From Candidatus Saccharimonadota bacterium (GTDB lineage Bacteria; Pseudomonadota; Gammaproteobacteria; Enterobacterales; Enterobacteriaceae): DNA of 32,000 nt. The DNA lies in assembly GCF_000090965.1 (NCBI RefSeq), contig NC_008513.1:180001-212000 (forward strand), read 5' to 3'. How positions within the stretch are numbered: the first letter of the stretch is position 1; the number at the start of each line of letters is the position of its first letter. Shown piece by piece: positions 3,487-31,650 of this stretch. The notes beneath the pieces were generated by a model. It was not told where the DNA came from. It saw only the letters and a list, made by a program, of their open reading frames with translations, and made no database searches. The position numbers were made by a program, and so were the translations under genes.

Positions 3487-5039
<1,553 letters not shown>

Positions 5040-5061
5040 AAATTTAAATATTTAGTTGGAT

Positions 5062-5079
5062 TGTGCCCGCATAAATTTT
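5062..5079 (+). other. 3' half of the 16S precursor processing stem
   Basis: Perfect 18-nt complement of 3388-3405. It lies 22 nt after the 16S 3' end and 16 nt before tRNA-Ile. Confidence 0.75.
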
Positions 5080-5095
5080 TTGATTTATAAAAAAC

Positions 5096-5169
5096 AGGCT
5101 TGTAGCTCAGCCGGTTAGAGCACACCCCTGATAAGGGTGAGGTCGGTGGTTCAAATCCACTCAGGCCTA
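5096..5169 (+). tRNA. ileT: tRNA-Ile (anticodon GAT)
   Basis: AGGCTTGTAGCTCAG..CCCCTGATAAGGGTG..GGTTCAAATCCACTCAGGCCTA is near-identical to E. coli tRNA-Ile(GAU). The cloverleaf is intact, and the 3' CCA is not encoded (followed by TAT). Confidence 0.95.
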
Positions 5170-5182
5170 TATGCACTATAAA

Positions 5183-5255
5183 GGGGCTATAGCTCAGCTG
5201 GGAGAGCGCCTGCTTTGCACGCAGGAGGTCAGCGGTTCAATCCCGCTTAGCTCCA
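5183..5255 (+). tRNA. alaT: tRNA-Ala (anticodon TGC)
   Basis: GGGGCTATAGCTCAGCTGGGAGAGCGCCTGCTTTGCACGCAGGAGGTCAGCGGTTCAATCCCGCTTAGCTCCA is near-identical to E. coli tRNA-Ala(UGC), including the G3:U70 pair. The CCA is not encoded (followed by ATG). Confidence 0.95.
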
Positions 5256-6978: not shown

Positions 6979-7448
6979 TTGAATATTTCTAAAAAAAAAA
7001 AACTTTTTTAAATAAGAAAGTTAAATATAATTTTTATATAAAAAAAAAATTTATTTCTGGTATAGAATTACAAGGATGGGAAGTAAAATCAATTCGAGCA
7101 GGACATGTTCAAATTAGTGATGGACATGTAATTATAAAAAATAATGAAGTTTATTTAACTAATGTACAGTTTCAACCATTAATCTATACTTCAGATTTAA
7201 AATTTTGTTTGTCAAATCGTGTTAGAAAATTGTTATTAAAAAAAAAAGAAATTTTTTTTTTAAAAATGTATAGTATTAAAAAAGGATATACTATTGTCCC
7301 AATAAAATTGTTTTGGATTAAATCTTGGTGTAAAATAAAAATAGCATTAGTTAAAGGAAAATCAAAAATGGATAAACGTCAAGATAAAAGAAATAATTCT
7401 TGGAAAATAGAAAGAGATACAATTTTTAAAAGAATATTAATTAAATAA
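6979..7448 (+). CDS. smpB: SsrA-binding protein SmpB, interrupted by a frameshift inside an A12 tract (6991-7002)
   Basis: Frame 3 is open from 6993 to 7448 and encodes ..[34 protein letters not shown]...KGYTIVPIKLFWIKSWCKIKIALVKGKSKMDKRQD.., colinear with E. coli SmpB ([35 protein letters not shown]...). That frame has no start codon before 7209. A plausible start (TTG 6979, preceded by AAGGG at 6967-6971) encodes MNISKKKK in frame 1 and stops at 7009. One extra A in the tract joins the two frames. Confidence 0.8.
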
Positions 7449-8351: not shown

Positions 8352-9219
8352 TTTCTTCCTTTTTAAATTTATTTTTTTTAATTTTAATTTTTATTTTTAA
8401 TAATGTTTTTTTTTTAAATGTTTTTTCTATTTTTTTTATTGAATAAAGTATACATTTTTGAATTTTTTCTCCATGTTTTCCGATAATAATTTTTTTATGT
8501 CTTTTATTATTAACAATAATTATACAAAAAATAATATATTTATTTTTAATATTCTTATTTAAGATAACATCTGATATTATAAATGAATATACTAATTCTT
8601 TATATAATAAATGCATTAAAGTTTTTCTAATTATTTCTGTAATCAAAAATTTTTCTTTATAAATAGTTTTTTTTGTAGAGATATATTTATGATTAGCTAT
8701 AGGTAATTTTTTTTTAATATTAGTTAATAAAATATCTAAAAATTTCTTTTTTTTCGCTGAAATTAAAATAATTTCACTATTAGGCGCGAATTTACTTATT
8801 TTTAATATAAAAGGTAATAATTTTTTTTTTTCAGTAATTAAATCAATTTTATTAATTACAATAATATATTTTTTTTTTTTTTTTTGAATAAAATTAAGTA
8901 TTTTAATTTCTATATTTTTCCAAATAAAGTTTGTAATTAAAAAAATTATTATATCTGATTCATTAATTAAATTAAATGTATCACGTATTTTTTTTTTTTC
9001 GATAATATTATGATATTTATCTTGTAATCCTGGAGAATCAAAAATTTCAAATTGAAACAATTTATATGTATAAATTCCTATAATATGTTTCTGAGTAGTA
9101 TTTGGTTTACGTGATATAATTGATATATTAGACTTAATTAATTTATTTAATAATGTAGATTTTCCAACATTAGTCCTTCCGACTATGATAATTTTTCCAA
9201 AAAAAGTTTTTTTTTGCAT
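8326..9219 (-). CDS. era: GTPase Era
   Basis: GTPase motifs G1 [10 protein letters not shown]3 DSPG and G4 NKID are present, with a C-terminal KH-like region. It sits downstream of rnc as in E. coli. Its 3' end overlaps the acpS start by 26 nt. Confidence 0.88.
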
Positions 9220-12963: not shown

Positions 12964-14085
12964 ATGGTAAAAATAATGAAAAAAAAAAAAATTATTGTAG
13001 CAATGTCCGGAGGAGTAGATTCTTCTGTATCTGCTTGGTTATTATTAAAGCAAGGATATCAAGTAGAAGGTTTATTTATGAAAAATTGGGATGAAGATGA
13101 TTCTAATGATTATTGTTCATCAAAAATTGATTTTAATGATGTAAAAAAAGTATGTAAAACATTAAATATACCTTTACATACAATTAATTTTTCTGAAGAA
13201 TATTGGGAAAATGTATTTTTAAATTTTCTTAAAGAACATAAAAAGGGAAATACTCCAAATCCAGATATTTTATGTAATAAAATAATTAAATTTAATATAT
13301 GTTTAAAATTCTCATTAAAATATTTAAAATCTGATTATTTTGCTACTGGACATTATGCTAAAATTAAAAAAACAAAAAAAAATTTTTATTTATATAGAGC
13401 ACATGATAAAAAAAAAGATCAAAGTTATTTTTTATATACTTTAAAATCTAAAATTTTATCTAAAATAATTTTTCCATTAGCTTATTTTAAAAAAAAAAAA
13501 ATTAGAAAAATAGCAAAAAAAATAAAATTATCTGTTTATAAAAAAAAAGATTCTACAGGAATTTGTTTTATTCAACCTAAAAAGTTCAATTCTTTTTTAA
13601 AACAATATATTCCTCAAAAAATTGGAAAAATTTTAACTATGTCTAAAGAATTTTTAGGATTACATTTAGGTTATGAATTTTATACTATTGGTCAAAGAAA
13701 AGGATTAAATATTGGAGGAAAAAAAAAAAAAAAAAATGCTTATCCTTGGTATGTAGTAAAAAAAGATATTTATTTAAATATTATTTTTGTAGTACAAGGA
13801 TTAAGAAATCCTTATTTATTATCTTATGGATTTTTAACAAAAAAAATTCATTATATAAATGATAATATTTTTTATTTTAAAAAAAAATGTGTTGTACAAA
13901 TAAAATACAGACAAGAACCAATTATTTGTGAATTTTTTAAGATTTCTAAGAAAAATAATTATATAAAAGTAATTTTTAAAAAACCTATTTTATATGTTAC
14001 TCCGGGTCAATCTGCAGTTTTTTATTTAAAAAATAAATGTTTAGGAGGATCAATCATAAAAAAAAATATACCTTATTTACCATAA
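12964..14085 (+). CDS. mnmA: tRNA 2-thiouridine(34) synthase MnmA/TrmU
   Basis: The PP-loop [13 protein letters not shown] and the catalytic Cys motifs NPDILCNK and DSTGICFI are present. The start may be the ATG at 12976 ([13 protein letters not shown]). The gene contains an in-frame A18 run at 13719-13736. Confidence 0.9.
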
Positions 14086-22375: not shown

Positions 22376-22787
22376 GTATTTCCCTTATATAAATTTTTAA
22401 TTTTTACTTTAAATTAATTATTAATTATTTTTTATGAAATATTATTAAATATTATTATTAATAAATTTTTTAGCATCAAAAAATTTATAAAATTTATAAT
22501 ATATTTTTATTTAATATATAAAAATTTAATAATTTTATTTTAAAATTAGTATTTAAAATAGCTTATTACAAGAAATATTTATTTTTAAAAAATATTATTT
22601 TTTATAAAATTAAGATATTATAATAATTTTTATTATAAAAAACATCTATATATTATATATTTTATTAATAAATTTTAAATTTCTGTTATTTATGATATAT
22701 TTTTTATTATTTGAAAAATTTTTTAATATCTATTATGATATAATTTTTATTTATATAAATAATAAAAATAAGAAATAGGTATTTAAT

Positions 22788-23518
22788 ATGGCAGAGAAAA
22801 TTCAAAAAATATTATCAAATTGTGGTGTAGATTCACGTCGTAATATTGAAAAACATATTTTAAATAAATCATTAAAAATAAATGGAAAAATTGTACATAT
22901 AGGGGAAAGATTTTTAAAAAAAAATATTAAATCGATATTTTTAAAAAAAAAAAAATTTTTATAAAAAATGAAAAAACAAAAATACTTATATATCATAAGC
23001 CAGTTGGAGAAATATGTACTAAAAAAGATCAATATAATAGAATTACAGTTTTTAAAAAATTACCAAAATTATTTTTTTCAAAATGGATTAGTATTGGTAG
23101 ATTAGATATTAATACATCAGGTTTATTATTATTTACTAATTTTGGAGAATTAGCACATAGATTAATGCATCCTAGTTATAGAATAAAAAGAGAATATCTT
23201 GTTTGTGTTCTTGGAAAAATTTTAAAAAAAAAAATACTTTTACTAAAAAAAGGAATTTTGATTAATAATTCTATTTCTAAATTTCACGAAATTATTTTTT
23301 TAAAAAAAAAAAAAAAAAATCAATGGTTTAAGGTATCTTTGTTTCAAGGAAAAAATAGAGAAGTTCGTTTATTATGGAATGCTATTAATATCAAAGTTAA
23401 TCGATTAATTCGAATTAAATTTGGAATAATAACATTACCTAAATTTTTGAAATCTGGTTGTTTTTTTGAATTATCTTATCAAAAAACAAAAAATATATTA
23501 AGTTTAGTAAATTTATAA
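22788..23518 (+). CDS. rluB: 23S rRNA pseudouridine synthase RluB, interrupted by a frameshift inside an A13 tract (22943-22955)
   Basis: The ATG at 22788 opens MAEKIQKILSNCGVDSRRNIEKHILNKSLKINGKI.. (S4 domain, cf. E. coli [24 protein letters not shown]), which stops at 22962-22964. Frame 2 is open from the tract onward: IFIKNEKTKILIYHKPVGEICT...WISIGRLDINTSGLLLFTNFGELAHRLMHPSYRIKREY...GKNREVRLLW...RLIRIKFG. The catalytic GRLD Asp motif is intact. One extra A joins the frames. The ORF-track entry 23165..23518 is only the part after the first in-frame Met. Confidence 0.85.
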
Positions 23519-25732: not shown

Positions 25733-27010
25733 ATGAATGTGTCATATCGATCAATTCGCGGAATGCACGATCTTTTTTTTTTAGATACTTACGAATTAAA
25801 TCGAATAGAAGTAATAATTAAAAATATAGTACATTCCTATGCATTTTCAGAAATTAGATTACCAATAGTTGAAGAAACAAGATTATTTACTAAAGCTATT
25901 GGAAATGATACTGATATTATTAATAAAGAAATGTATAATTTTTATGATAAAAAAAAAAAAAAAATTTCTTTACGACCAGAAGGAACAGTAGGTTGTATTC
26001 GTGCATGTATACAAAATAACATTTTTTATCAATCTCAAATTCAAAAATTTTGGTATCACGGTCCCATGTTTCGTTATGAACGACCTCAAAAAGGACGTTT
26101 TAGACAATTTCATCAATTTGGAATAGAATTATTCGGCTCAAAAAATATAATTTCTGATTATGAACTTATTATATTAACAATAAATATTTGGAAAAAATTA
26201 AATATATTAAAATATTTAACTTTAGAAATAAATTCAATTGGTTCTATAGAAGATAGAGTAAAATACTCTTTGGATTTAAATAGTTTTTTAAAAAAAAATA
26301 TACATAAAATAAAAAAAAATAAAAAAAAAATATTATTAAATAATTCTATTAGATTATTAGATAATAAGGATATTTATATAAAAAAACTATTAAAATCTGC
26401 TCCAATATTAAAAAATTATTTAAATTTACAATCATGTATTCGTTTTAAAAAACTATGTAATTTATTACATTATTTTAAAATAAAATTTATTATAAATAAA
26501 AAACTAGTTAGAGGATTAGATTATTATAATGATACAGTATTTGAATGGAAATCTAATCTTTTAGGATCAAAAAATACTATTTGTGCAGGCGGTCGTTATG
26601 ATCATTTAGTAAAATTTTTAGGAGGAAAAGACAATCCAGCAATTGGTGTAGCTATAGGAATGGATAGATTATTACTTTTAATAAAATCTATTTATTTAAA
26701 TAAATATAATTTTTTTCTTATAGATGTTAATATTATTTTTTTAGAATCAATATATTTAAAATTAGCTATAAAAATATCAGAAGAATTGCGTGTTCTTTGG
26801 CCTGTTTTAAAAATTAATACATGTTTAAATATTATTAAAAAAAAAAATTTTTTTAAATATTCTAAAACATCAAAATCAAAATATTTATTAATTTTATCAT
26901 CTACATTTTTAAAAAATAATAAAATTCATTTAATAAATATTTCAAAAAAAGAAAAAAAAACAATAAATTTTACTAGAATTTTTCAAAATCCGTGTATTTT
27001 TAATCATTAA
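25733..27010 (+). CDS. hisS: Histidyl-tRNA synthetase
   Basis: IRGMHD, LRPEGT, motif 2 MFRYERPQKGRFRQFHQFG, AGGRYDHL and AIGVAIGMDRLL are present. The gene contains an in-frame A16 run at 25949-25964. Confidence 0.93.
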   Translation: MNVSYRSIRGMHDLFFLDTYELNRIEVIIKNIVHSYAFSEIRLPIVEETRLFTKAIGNDTDIINKEMYNFYDKKKKKISLRPEGTVGCIRACIQNNIFYQSQIQKFWYHGPMFRYERPQKGRFRQFHQFGIELFGSKNIISDYELIILTINIWKKLNILKYLTLEINSIGSIEDRVKYSLDLNSFLKKNIHKIKKNKKKILLNNSIRLLDNKDIYIKKLLKSAPILKNYLNLQSCIRFKKLCNLLHYFKIKFIINKKLVRGLDYYNDTVFEWKSNLLGSKNTICAGGRYDHLVKFLGGKDNPAIGVAIGMDRLLLLIKSIYLNKYNFFLIDVNIIFLESIYLKLAIKISEELRVLWPVLKINTCLNIIKKKNFFKYSKTSKSKYLLILSSTFLKNNKIHLINISKKEKKTINFTRIFQNPCIFNH

Positions 27011-29598: not shown

Positions 29599-31650
29599 TT
29601 ATTTATTTTTATTAATAATTTTTTTTAAAAAATTTTTAATCCAATATAATAACTCTTTGTCATTTGAAAATTTTTTATAATAATATATTTTATATTTTAA
29701 TATTTTCCAATAAAAAAGATTTCTAATGATTTTTTTATATAACCATTGTATATTTAAAATATTTTTTTTTGAAAAAATTAAACATATTTTTTTAATATGA
29801 AAAAAAATTTTTTTAATACCAATTTTTTTAGAAAGAATTTTTATTTGTGTTAATAAAAATAAATTTTTTGTATATTTTGGTAATTTTCCAAATATATTAA
29901 ACATTGCATGTTTTATTTTTTTTAGTTTTTTGTTTTTCTTAACAGATGATATTTTTTTATAATACATTAATCTTATATTAATATCTTTAATATAGTTATT
30001 TGGTAGTATTGCAGATACATTTAATTGAATATCAATATTTTGATTAAAATTTTTTATTTCATTAATTGTTTGTAAATTTTTTTTTTGCTTTATTTTTAAA
30101 ATTGATTCTTTAAGAAATTTTTTATATAGTTTAAAACCAATTGTTTTAATATGACCGCTTTGATTTGTTCCTAATAATTCACCAACTCCTCTTATTTCTA
30201 GATCATGTTTTGATAATATTAAACCAGATCCTAAATCTGTATAATTTTTTATTATATTTAATCGTTTTTTTGCTTTTTTATTAATTTTATTTAAATTTGG
30301 TATTAAAAAAAATGCATATGCTTGTCTTTTAGAACGACCTATTCTACCACGTAATTGATGTAATTGTGATAATCCAAATTTATCAGCATTTTCTATAATC
30401 ATAGTATTAACATTACTAATATTTATTTCAGTATCTATAATTGTAGTACAGATTAAAATATCAAATTTTTTATTAAAAAAATCATACATAATTTTATATA
30501 AATCTTTACTATTCATTTTTCCATGACTAATTTCAATACGAGCTTCTGGGATTAAATATAATAAATATTTTTTTTTTTCTTCTATATTTTTAACTCTATT
30601 AAATAAATAATATACTTGTCCTTTTCTTTTTAATTCTCTTAATATTACTTTTCGTATAATTTTAGGATGAAAATTTTTGATAAATGTTTTTATTTTTAAA
30701 CGTTTTTTTGGCGGAGTAGATATAATAGATAAATCTTTGATTCCAAGAATAGACATATTTAATGTTCTAGGAATCGGTGTAGCTGTTAAAGTAAGTATAT
30801 CAATATTAATATATAATTTTTTTATTTTTTCTTTATGAAATACACCAAAACGATGTTCTTCATCAATAATTAATAATCCTAAATTTTTCCAAATTAAATA
30901 TTTTGATAAAATTTTATGTGTACCAATAAGAATATTTATTTTTCCATTTTTGATTTTTTTTTTAATTATTTTTTCTTTTTTACTTGATGTAAAACGTGAA
31001 TATACATTAATTTTATACTTATACTCAGAAAATCGATTTTTAAATGTATTATAATGTTGTTGAGCTAATAAAGTCGTTGGAACAAGAATAGCAACTTGTT
31101 TTTTATTATCTAAAGCTATAAAAGTAGCTCTCATAGCTATTTCAGTTTTTCCAAATCCTACATCTCCACATAATAAACGATCCATAGGAACTGATTTTTT
31201 CATATCTTGTATAATTTCTTTTATAGAGTTTTTTTGATCAAGTGTTATATGATACAAACACTTATTACAAAAATTTTTGTATTTCAAAATATTTTTTTTA
31301 AAGGAAAATCCTTTTCTACAATATCGATGTGCTTTAATATCAATTAATTCAACAGCTGCATCATAAATTTTTTTTTTTACTTTTTTACATGTTTCTAACC
31401 ATGTTTTAGTTCCTAAAGTATTTAAAGATATTTTTGAAGTATTTGAAGTTTTATAAATATTTATTAAATTAAGAGATGTAATAGGTACGTAAAGTTTAAC
31501 TTTATTTGCATACATGATTACAAAATAATCTGTTAATTTTCCTTTATTTTTTAATGTACATAAATCAATATATCTACCAATGCCGTATTGAGTATGAATT
31601 ACAAGTTGATTTTTTTGAAATGTTTTTTTTTTTGTGTTTTTTTTTTTCAT
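29599..31650 (-). CDS. mfd: Transcription-repair coupling factor Mfd, N-terminally truncated form (683 aa; RID + translocase + C-terminal domain only)
   Basis: The protein starts at ..QLVIHTQYGIGRYIDL..TDYFVIMYANKVKLYVPITSLNLI (E. coli ~aa 480: PVVHLEHGVGRYAGM..GEYLMLTYANDAKLYVPVSSLHLI). Then follow MDRLLCGDVGFGKTEIAMRA (Walker A), LIIDEEHRFGV (DEEH box), QLHQLRGRIGRS and LEIRGVGELLGTNQSGHI (TRG motif). Nothing corresponds to the ~470-aa UvrB-homology N-terminal module. Confidence 0.9.
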   Translation of the reverse strand: MKKKNTKKKTFQKNQLVIHTQYGIGRYIDLCTLKNKGKLTDYFVIMYANKVKLYVPITSLNLINIYKTSNTSKISLNTLGTKTWLETCKKVKKKIYDAAVELIDIKAHRYCRKGFSFKKNILKYKNFCNKCLYHITLDQKNSIKEIIQDMKKSVPMDRLLCGDVGFGKTEIAMRATFIALDNKKQVAILVPTTLLAQQHYNTFKNRFSEYKYKINVYSRFTSSKKEKIIKKKIKNGKINILIGTHKILSKYLIWKNLGLLIIDEEHRFGVFHKEKIKKLYINIDILTLTATPIPRTLNMSILGIKDLSIISTPPKKRLKIKTFIKNFHPKIIRKVILRELKRKGQVYYLFNRVKNIEEKKKYLLYLIPEARIEISHGKMNSKDLYKIMYDFFNKKFDILICTTIIDTEINISNVNTMIIENADKFGLSQLHQLRGRIGRSKRQAYAFFLIPNLNKINKKAKKRLNIIKNYTDLGSGLILSKHDLEIRGVGELLGTNQSGHIKTIGFKLYKKFLKESILKIKQKKNLQTINEIKNFNQNIDIQLNVSAILPNNYIKDINIRLMYYKKISSVKKNKKLKKIKHAMFNIFGKLPKYTKNLFLLTQIKILSKKIGIKKIFFHIKKICLIFSKKNILNIQWLYKKIIRNLFYWKILKYKIYYYKKFSNDKELLYWIKNFLKKIINKNK

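Follow-up and report, generated by a model that had tools for sequence, protein, structure and literature searches.

Organization of the rluB Locus

At positions 22788–23518 of the forward strand, the 32-kb window studied here (the whole stretch of DNA analyzed, 32,000 nucleotides (nt), to which all positions refer) carries the rluB of Buchnera aphidicola BCc, symbiont of the cedar aphid Cinara cedri, a gene that codes for the 23S rRNA pseudouridine-2605 synthase. In the deposited DNA rluB is not encoded as one continuous reading frame. The 5' segment (22788–22964), in what we call frame 0, starts at the ATG of 22788, comprises 58 codons for a putative S4-like RNA-binding domain, and ends at the TAA of 22962–22964, its product beginning with MAEKIQKILSNCGVDSRRNIEKHIL and finishing in FLKKKKFL. 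The 3' segment (22931–23518), on the same strand in the −1 frame, comprises 195 codons for a pseudouridine-synthase catalytic domain and ends at the TAA of 23516–23518. Its translation reads, in order, YHKPVGEICTKKD, WISIGRLDINTSGLLLFTN, HRLMHPSYRIKREY, GKNREVRLLW, and NRLIRIKFG; and the GRLD motif (23096–23107), HRLMHPSYRIKREY, and NREVRLLW..NRLIRIKFG are thus all found in this one frame. The Asp of the GRLD motif is the catalytic residue of the pseudouridine-synthase family, and its codon here, a GAT at 23105–23107, corresponds to D107 of the frame-restored protein.

Both frames are open together over only 31 nt (22931–22961), the interval between their closing TAA codons. Because the TAA at 22928–22930 shuts the −1 frame upstream—that frame being open thereafter from 22931 to 23515—and the TAA at 22962–22964 shuts frame 0 downstream, a change of frame within this interval is required. 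The sole homopolymer inside it is a run of 13 adenines (A13, 22943–22955) with a T at either end, for which run A14, A11, or A17 would be the in-frame lengths. Insertion of one A gives a RluB of 243 amino acids (aa), and deletion of two gives one of 242, the peptides of the full-length junction being ..SIFLKKKKIFIK.. and ..FLKKKKIFIK.. in the place of the 58-aa stub that ends in ..KKKKFL. A further run of nine adenines in the 5' segment (22916–22924), itself in frame, would be useless for rescue, because a switch to the −1 frame there would run into the TAA at 22928. The initial annotation of this DNA had located the break at a single point in the A13 run, and all of those coordinates were confirmed; the catalytic frame is likewise open as had been claimed, though it opens at 22931, 12 nt upstream of the run, and not within it.

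Could the two segments represent a split gene—an S4 peptide plus a separately initiated catalytic domain—or be joined by a programmed −1 frameshift with a regulatory role, after the manner of dnaX? We consider either arrangement very improbable. The run does contain the slippery heptamer A-AAA-AAA; the codons ATC, ATT, and ATA occur in the −1 frame at 22931–22961; and near-cognate starts have already been invoked for BCc, whose SmpB begins at an ATT in the databases. Yet no ATG, GTG, or TTG precedes 23165 in the −1 frame, as the initial annotation had stated, and the first canonical start (the ATG at 23165–23167) comes 20 codons after that of the catalytic Asp, with the nearest GGAG 17 nt upstream of the ATG, a distance ill suited to a ribosome-binding site. 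We accordingly rejected an active catalytic domain beginning at Met-23165, since such a product would lack the catalytic Asp of 23105–23107; and the split-gene alternative, previously regarded as the less likely one, is herewith rejected more firmly.

With respect to programming, the dnaX sites reviewed in PMC5009743, where in E. coli a programmed −1 ribosomal frameshift takes place at A-AAA-AAG and in Thermus the polymerase slips while transcribing a run of A9, resemble that of rluB in having an A-rich slippery run and decoding by tRNA-Lys. Those sites, however, are conserved, possess an upstream Shine–Dalgarno-like element plus a downstream hairpin, and give rise to two functional products, whereas the unshifted product of rluB is a 58-aa stub. 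No AGGAGG-like element was found within the 20 nt upstream of the run; folding of the 85 nt 3' of the run yields −4.2 kcal/mol (z = 0.0), which value points to no downstream structure; and conservation was found for neither the run nor the shift, the relatives encoding one protein of 243–250 aa. Of the dnaX-like features, then, rluB has the slippery heptamer and neither the stimulators nor the conservation, and a programmed site of that type was rejected.

Upstream of the gene, a Shine–Dalgarno-like AGG (22777–22779) lies 8 nt before the ATG of 22788, and a promoter-like TTGAAA-17-TATGAT (22711–22739), with 10 of 12 consensus matches, is located 49 nt upstream of that ATG; promoter-like sites are no commoner in the rluB region than in shuffled sequence, and the element is to be read as a consensus match only. 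On the opposite strand, a TTG-start open reading frame (ORF) of 76 aa (22802–23032), in which Phe, Ile, Lys, and Asn predominate, spans the rluB junction. We judged this ORF to be a by-product of the A+T-rich sequence.

Identity of the Frame-Restored Protein

The best NCBIfam match of the restored protein was the RluB equivalog NF007976 (E = 2.5e-69, 233.6 bits), as compared with the scores of 71.6, 69.3, and 50.7 bits obtained with the models for RluF, RsuA, and RluE, respectively; the first of these scores falls below the curated cutoff of 290 bits for NF007976, as would be expected for a divergent endosymbiont RluB without the C-terminal tail. The 3' segment scored 145.9 bits with TIGR00093 (cutoff, 109.3 bits), and Pfam PF00849 (PseudoU_synth_2) was recognized in the −1 frame part with E = 1.6e-19. 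The Pfam S4 match of the 58-aa part (E = 0.0059, 16.8 bits) remained under the gathering score of 22.8 bits; residues 1–58 are colinear with the S4 domain of E. coli RluB (residues 5–60) and with the Buchnera orthologues.

Among structures, the best matches in the PDB were those of RluB, 4lab and 9cl9. Residues 1–242 of the restored protein align to residues 5–249 of E. coli RluB in 4lab (E = 5e-58) with a single 3-residue gap, which gap is situated away from the junction, and with the GRLD motif conserved; this end-to-end alignment bears out the contention that one added A, or the loss of two, yields a colinear RluB. The D107 column is invariant in an alignment of 18 RluB sequences. In addition, the gene order yciA–yciC–[trp]–rluB–suhB–rlmN–hisS–glyA agrees with that of the relatives.

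Furthermore, the restored 243-aa protein is 100% identical over 100% of its length to GenBank ABJ90646.1 / UniProt Q057Q3, the RluB of Buchnera BCc. The sequence therefore belongs to the published BCc chromosome, and the depositors' translation already crosses the break: since ABJ90646.1 equals the translation obtained upon adding one A, and yet the DNA does not code for it directly, their record would bridge the frameshift. The public 243-aa record accordingly conceals that the DNA does not directly encode the protein. The cluster of full-length RluB contains GenBank and UniProt accessions only, and no RefSeq WP_ accession. The full-length RluB is already public, and its locus falls into a known class within a published genome; as an annotation, we would propose rluB with a homopolymeric frameshift, neither two small ORFs nor a plain intact gene.

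The Run in Relatives and the Origin of the Break

We compared the rluB DNA of five other Cinara Buchnera: L004 (from C. piceae), L005, L006 (from C. tujafilina), L007 (from C. pseudotaxifoliae), and L008. The gene is intact in all five, with 243–244 codons, and the 13 Cinara-Buchnera RluB proteins retrieved by protein search are all full length (243–251 aa); indeed, rluB is intact in every other Buchnera recovered, all the Cinara genomes of roughly 430–450 kb included. In the codon alignment the site of the run reads TTA AAT AAT AAA AAA ATT in L004 and L005, TTA AAT AAA AAA AAA ATT in L008, TTT AAT AAT AAA AAA TTC in L007, and ATT AAA AAA AAT TAT CAT in the more divergent L006, as against TTA AAA AAA AAA AAA [A]TT in BCc; the relatives are in frame at this site with A7–A10. 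The BCc run was lengthened by AAT>AAA (Asn>Lys) substitutions at constant length, two such codons having mutated so that short stretches of A fused, with A14 as the in-frame state; and because the same codons span 14 positions in the relatives, the A13 of BCc is one base short. The single-base deletion that this would imply is of the type produced by replication slippage in homopolymers.

Two further runs lie within the catalytic domain, both in frame: an A11 at 23224–23234, which has counterparts of A10–A11 in four of the five relatives and no run of at least 7 in the fifth, L007; and an A18 at 23302–23319, the counterparts of which are A8–A11. Since the protein length is unchanged, the A18 likewise grew by substitution. 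Both the frameshift and the long run are, among the sequenced Cinara Buchnera compared, confined to BCc.

That A14 is exactly the in-frame length predicted by the codons of the relatives would also be the expectation if the true genome contained A14 and rluB were intact, the A13 having arisen as an error of Sanger sequencing, cloning, or assembly in a region of 87% A+T. Long homopolymers are a classic place for errors of length. The remainder of rluB is pristine, and no second BCc assembly turned up with which the run could be compared: exact-product look-ups (with the 58-aa and 117-aa ORFs, SuhB, and the restored protein) returned no contig; a gapped DNA pattern across the run had no match in the JGI metagenomes; and a search of genome contigs with the restored protein, made with peptide patterns that were too specific, retrieved three loci only, all of them distant and none from Buchnera. 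Against such a miscount, the depositors kept the A13 beside a full-length translation, so that an error was presumably not their own resolution of the discrepancy; and a later census assigns three homopolymeric frameshifts to Buchnera-Cc (PMC3164680). We regard a miscounted run as improbable, the more general behavior of the runs in this window, described next, being pertinent to the same question.

Long Adenine Runs Across the Window

Windows of A13 occur 39 times in the 32 kb, compared with 2.6 ± 2.5 in dinucleotide shuffles. Within the 26.5 kb of coding sequence we counted 98 sense-strand A runs of at least 9 nt, 23 of which measure at least 12 nt, vs. only 9 antisense runs of at least 9 nt and 3 outside the annotated protein-coding genes. 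The A13 of rluB is consequently far above the compositional expectation, yet not special within the BCc genome. All the runs of at least 11 nt consist of sense-strand A (repeats of the Lys codon AAA), examples being those at 8869–8885, 13719–13736, and 25949–25964.

Of the 98 long sense-strand runs 96 are in frame, among them runs of A15–A18 in lepB, hisS, era, and mnmA, and the frame is broken at only the A13 of rluB and an A12 of smpB. Such a proportion indicates that the run lengths are in general either reliable or curated, which circumstance speaks against a miscount; nevertheless, with 23 runs of at least 12 nt in the window, an error of a few per cent per run would be enough for about one artefact. 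Taken together with the explicit bridging by the depositors, the same proportion suggests that the break did not escape notice but was retained.

The position of the break does not in itself discriminate among the explanations. The initial annotation had held that a break in an A tract argues against pseudogenization, an argument which fails: in the comparison of four genomes by Degnan, Ochman and Moran (2011; PMC3164680), mutations in homopolymers account for 42 of 69 Buchnera pseudogenes, and miscounts also occur there. Since runs are both a hotspot of indels and the site of sequencing miscounts, a break inside the run is predicted by every hypothesis. Nor can weight be given to the two genes' being broken in the same direction, as had also been adduced, for with n = 2 that coincidence has a probability of about 0.5.

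The census by Degnan and coworkers lists for Buchnera-Cc (416,380 bp) three homopolymeric frameshifts and four pseudogenes (PMC3164680). The three frameshifted genes are not named in the supplements to that paper, but in all probability rluB and smpB are among them.

Tests for Decay

Multiple lesions, relaxed constraint, and truncation—the criteria for a decaying pseudogene—were none of them found in rluB. The break constitutes the only lesion, each frame being stop-free on its own side and the alignment of 18 sequences containing no indel at the junction. At columns otherwise invariant BCc exhibits one singleton change, a conservative Y>F, the intact Cinara-Buchnera orthologues having 0–3. 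With the C. tujafilina symbiont as the outgroup, Tajima-type counts for BCc vs. an ingroup relative were 17:12 (p = 0.46) and 27:19 (p = 0.30), and nine intact neighboring genes gave relative-rate ratios similar to those of rluB. The three-point branch ratio of rluB, 1.28–1.32, falls inside the neighbors' range of 0.89–1.74 when reckoned against L004 and above the neighbors' maximum (range, 0.64–1.07) when reckoned against L007; rluB is thus at the upper end and is no outlier.

The NG86 omega with respect to the nearest relative was 0.37 (intact neighbors, 0.17–0.93), and the pN/pS values were 0.40 for the N-terminal and 0.47 for the C-terminal half; pairwise dS is compressed by the extreme A+T bias, and these values, which mostly mirror events that preceded the frameshift, suffice to rule out neutrality over the long term, though not an inactivation of recent date. 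The dN/dS comparison of both halves that had been proposed as a check is therefore informative on the first point and silent on the second, whereas the claim that both halves are conserved stands, with neither decay nor rate acceleration nor an unusual dN/dS in evidence.

A limit can nonetheless be set to any neutral period. Since 7.2% of the single-base changes in rluB would yield a stop and no new stop is present, that period was shorter than about 0.06 substitutions per site (5% level), which limit is small beside the length of the BCc branch, the pairwise NG86 dS between BCc and its nearest relative being about 0.5 or more. Moreover, the A18 and A11 runs, expected to be at least as prone to indels as the A13, are still in frame. 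The tests of rate, omega, and lesions accordingly exclude a long-dead gene, and the data are compatible alike with a gene in use, a very recent break, or a miscounted run.

If the break were very recent, a real deletion of 1 nt would have inactivated rluB, in-frame products of slippage would be incidental and too rare to matter, and there would have been too little time for further lesions to accumulate ahead of the deletion of the gene. The inactivation of a gene in Buchnera most often begins with an indel in a homopolymer, and such indels are usually taken to mark recent inactivations (PMC3164680, PMC3017870); the break is specific to one lineage; and transcriptome-wide data from Buchnera contain no instance of frame restoration (PMC5574713). 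BCc, for its part, sheds genes, and has done so beside rluB itself: trpDCBA (trpD–trpC(F)–trpB–trpA, about 4.4 kb) is located between yciC and rluB in all five relatives and is gone from BCc, where the 412-bp spacer between those two genes (22376–22787) retains no remnant detectable by tblastn. The BCc branch is also slightly, though not significantly, long (ratio of about 1.3), and the lack of a WP_ accession might perhaps be consistent with a re-annotation as a pseudogene. In opposition to these considerations, the 243 codons contain no second lesion, which leaves only the short neutral period just calculated; the hypermutable A18 and A11 runs have stayed in frame; all the other Buchnera recovered keep rluB intact; and slippage of the RNA polymerase at an A13 is physically to be expected. 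On balance we consider a recent pseudogene rather unlikely, albeit an explanation to be reckoned with.

Possible Rescue of rluB by Slippage

The reading that we prefer, to which we would accord slightly less than an even chance, is that the frameshift is real, that it would be leakily rescued by slippage, and that the gene would still be in use. The synthesis of full-length RluB would then need recoding inside 22931–22961, for which three routes that are not mutually exclusive may be envisaged. In the main one, the RNA polymerase would slip back on the all-A:T hybrid and add one A or, less often, drop two; as the run exceeds the 8–9-bp RNA:DNA hybrid, the transcript could re-pair one position back and one A could be copied twice, with the result that a minority of the rluB mRNAs would be in frame. 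A second route would be a −1 sliding of the ribosome on A-AAA-AAA, unprogrammed and probably inefficient. The third would be a heterogeneity of run length among the genome copies, to the same effect: Buchnera cells contain many such copies, and a mixture of run lengths among them is conceivable. Through such recoding rluB would stay expressed at a lowered dosage, in the manner of other homopolymeric frameshifts of endosymbionts.

Both polymerase and ribosome recoding exist in bacteria (PMC5009743). For poly(A) frameshifts of Buchnera and Blochmannia, 12–50% of the transcripts are corrected, according to the accounts of Tamas et al. (2008) given in PMC5009743 and PMC3017870. In the Buchnera transcriptome, 151 of 157 insertions lie in homopolymeric tracts, and most of these tract insertions are additions of a single base in runs of A or T, at a rate that rises exponentially with run length (PMC5574713); since one added A is the correction that both rluB and smpB need, the dominant transcription error of Buchnera fits the direction required. 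E. coli ribosomes slide on iterated AAA codons (PMC4363877), and single-base indel polymorphisms have been observed within Buchnera samples (PMC3164680). The slippage rescue postulated by the initial annotation is thus established as a phenomenon in this group, at least in so far as those accounts report it, and its dominant product is the proper one; the conservation of the frameshift in relatives, which would have pointed to its maintenance, was not found.

The closest parallels are the cases of Tamas et al. (2008, PNAS), which as related in the same two accounts comprise cell-wall genes of Buchnera and a histidine gene of Blochmannia. There, as in rluB, a change of 1 nt restores the frame, and a long run of sense-strand A carries a lone indel, the gene being intact in other respects and its genome reduced and extremely A+T-rich; those Buchnera cases come, besides, from the same species complex as BCc. 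The difference is that heterogeneous transcripts were measured and full-length products reported for those genes, and neither rluB nor BCc figures among the slippage cases that the two accounts describe. The traits of the endosymbiont homopolymeric frameshifts recur in rluB: a sense-strand A run of at least 9 nt, a gene otherwise intact, and no rate acceleration. Conservation across species, the criterion for frameshifts that are maintained, was not found in the five relatives or the 13 proteins. By comparison, the ancient frameshifts of Blochmannia (Wernegreen et al., 2010, MBE, as cited in PMC3017870 and bioRxiv 10.1101/2022.08.28.505559) are, like that of rluB, unaccompanied by other degradation or acceleration, and a poly(A) frameshift in pheA, conserved in the Buchnera of Periphyllus/Chaitophorinae, is similarly undegraded otherwise; but those frameshifts are common to populations or species, which distribution is evidence for selection, whereas the break in rluB is present in BCc only.

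Two other systems bear a more partial resemblance. The pseudogenes arising from homopolymer indels (Moran et al., 2009, Science; PMC3164680) have the same type of lesion as rluB, and the framework developed for them treats such genes as recent inactivations while leaving any remaining function undecided. In the work of Koutmou et al. (2015; PMC4363877), as at rluB, the frame changes on homopolymeric A within iterated AAA codons; in that system, sliding entails a loss of output through out-of-frame termination, whereas at rluB it would occasionally restore the frame. By analogy with these precedents, slippage at the run, a useful yield of RluB, and a continuing selection on the gene might all be expected in BCc.

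Several considerations weigh against this interpretation. The frameshift is not common to any other sequenced Cinara Buchnera, and as it is specific to BCc the comparative sign of selective maintenance is absent. A very recent inactivation would equally leave no decay behind it, and the BCc genome is actively eroding. RluB is not known to be essential. Because the A11 and A18 runs would also slip, the yield of correct protein would be well below the rate of correction at the A13 itself; and neither the product look-ups nor the JGI metagenome pattern turned up a second BCc assembly by which that A13 would be confirmed. Finally, Traverse and Ochman detected in Buchnera no transcription error that restored a reading frame (PMC5574713).

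A more far-reaching possibility, which we hold to be speculative and quite doubtful, is that BCc employs a direction-specific, slippage-buffered decoding in which 1-nt deletions in the runs are preferentially tolerated and 1-nt insertions purged, rluB and smpB being obligatorily expressed through slippage and under selection as such. The basis for this idea may be sought in a density of about three long sense-strand A runs per kb of coding sequence, combined with a polymerase that mostly adds one A. Were it true, the transcript population, and not the DNA, would define the frame that is read at long runs. Under the preferred reading of a leaky rescue, by contrast, rluB adds a further example, real but ordinary, to a phenomenon on record since 2008, and raises no new question. 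The A runs of BCc are, however, much longer and denser than those of the Buchnera strains studied so far, and the presence of rluB and smpB within 32 kb could offer handy test loci for the dependence of BCc on slippage.

smpB and Other Genes of the Window

The frameshifted smpB (6979–7448) is broken in the way that had been described, the A12 run at 6991–7002 following a TTG start at 6979 and one added A restoring the frame. After that TTG the residues NIS resemble the MNIN... N-terminus of the intact SmpB of Cinara Buchnera, and the addition of one A results in a protein of 156 aa. In the databases, however, the BCc SmpB has 131 aa and begins at the ATT of 7053, which means that the depositors' bridging of frameshifts was not uniform; and the restored SmpB variants had no match in the protein collection. 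Three other SmpB proteins of Cinara Buchnera are annotated as short (137–140 aa), an observation that hints at a recurrent breakage of the N-terminal poly(A) region of smpB.

Direct family matches identified flhA, argS, the 16S rRNA gene, dnaQ, grpE, smpB, tadA, acpS, era, rnc, lepB, lepA, mnmA, fabI, rnb, lipB, sppA, yciA, yciC, pgl, and mfd; whereas lipA, suhB, rlmN, hisS, and glyA were named after the Pfam families to which their syntenic counterparts in the relatives belong. The 16S rRNA gene is followed by those of tRNA-Ile(GAT) and tRNA-Ala(TGC), the three occupying 3488–5255, and next by dnaQ. No 23S gene follows the 16S–tRNA block or occurs elsewhere in the window, in keeping with the split organization of the rRNA genes that has been noted in Buchnera. 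On the reverse strand, mfd (29599–31650) encodes 683 aa covering residues 478–1144 of the 1148-aa E. coli-type model, and is similarly short (686–719 aa) in the relatives; the N-terminal, UvrA-interacting part of Mfd appears to be missing across the Cinara Buchnera.

As a last observation, mnmA (12964–14085) itself carries two A13 runs and one A18 run, all in frame. Its product is responsible for the 2-thio modification of U34 in the AAA-reading tRNA-Lys, and the activity of MnmA may therefore affect the maintenance of the frame on all the poly(A) runs of this genome.

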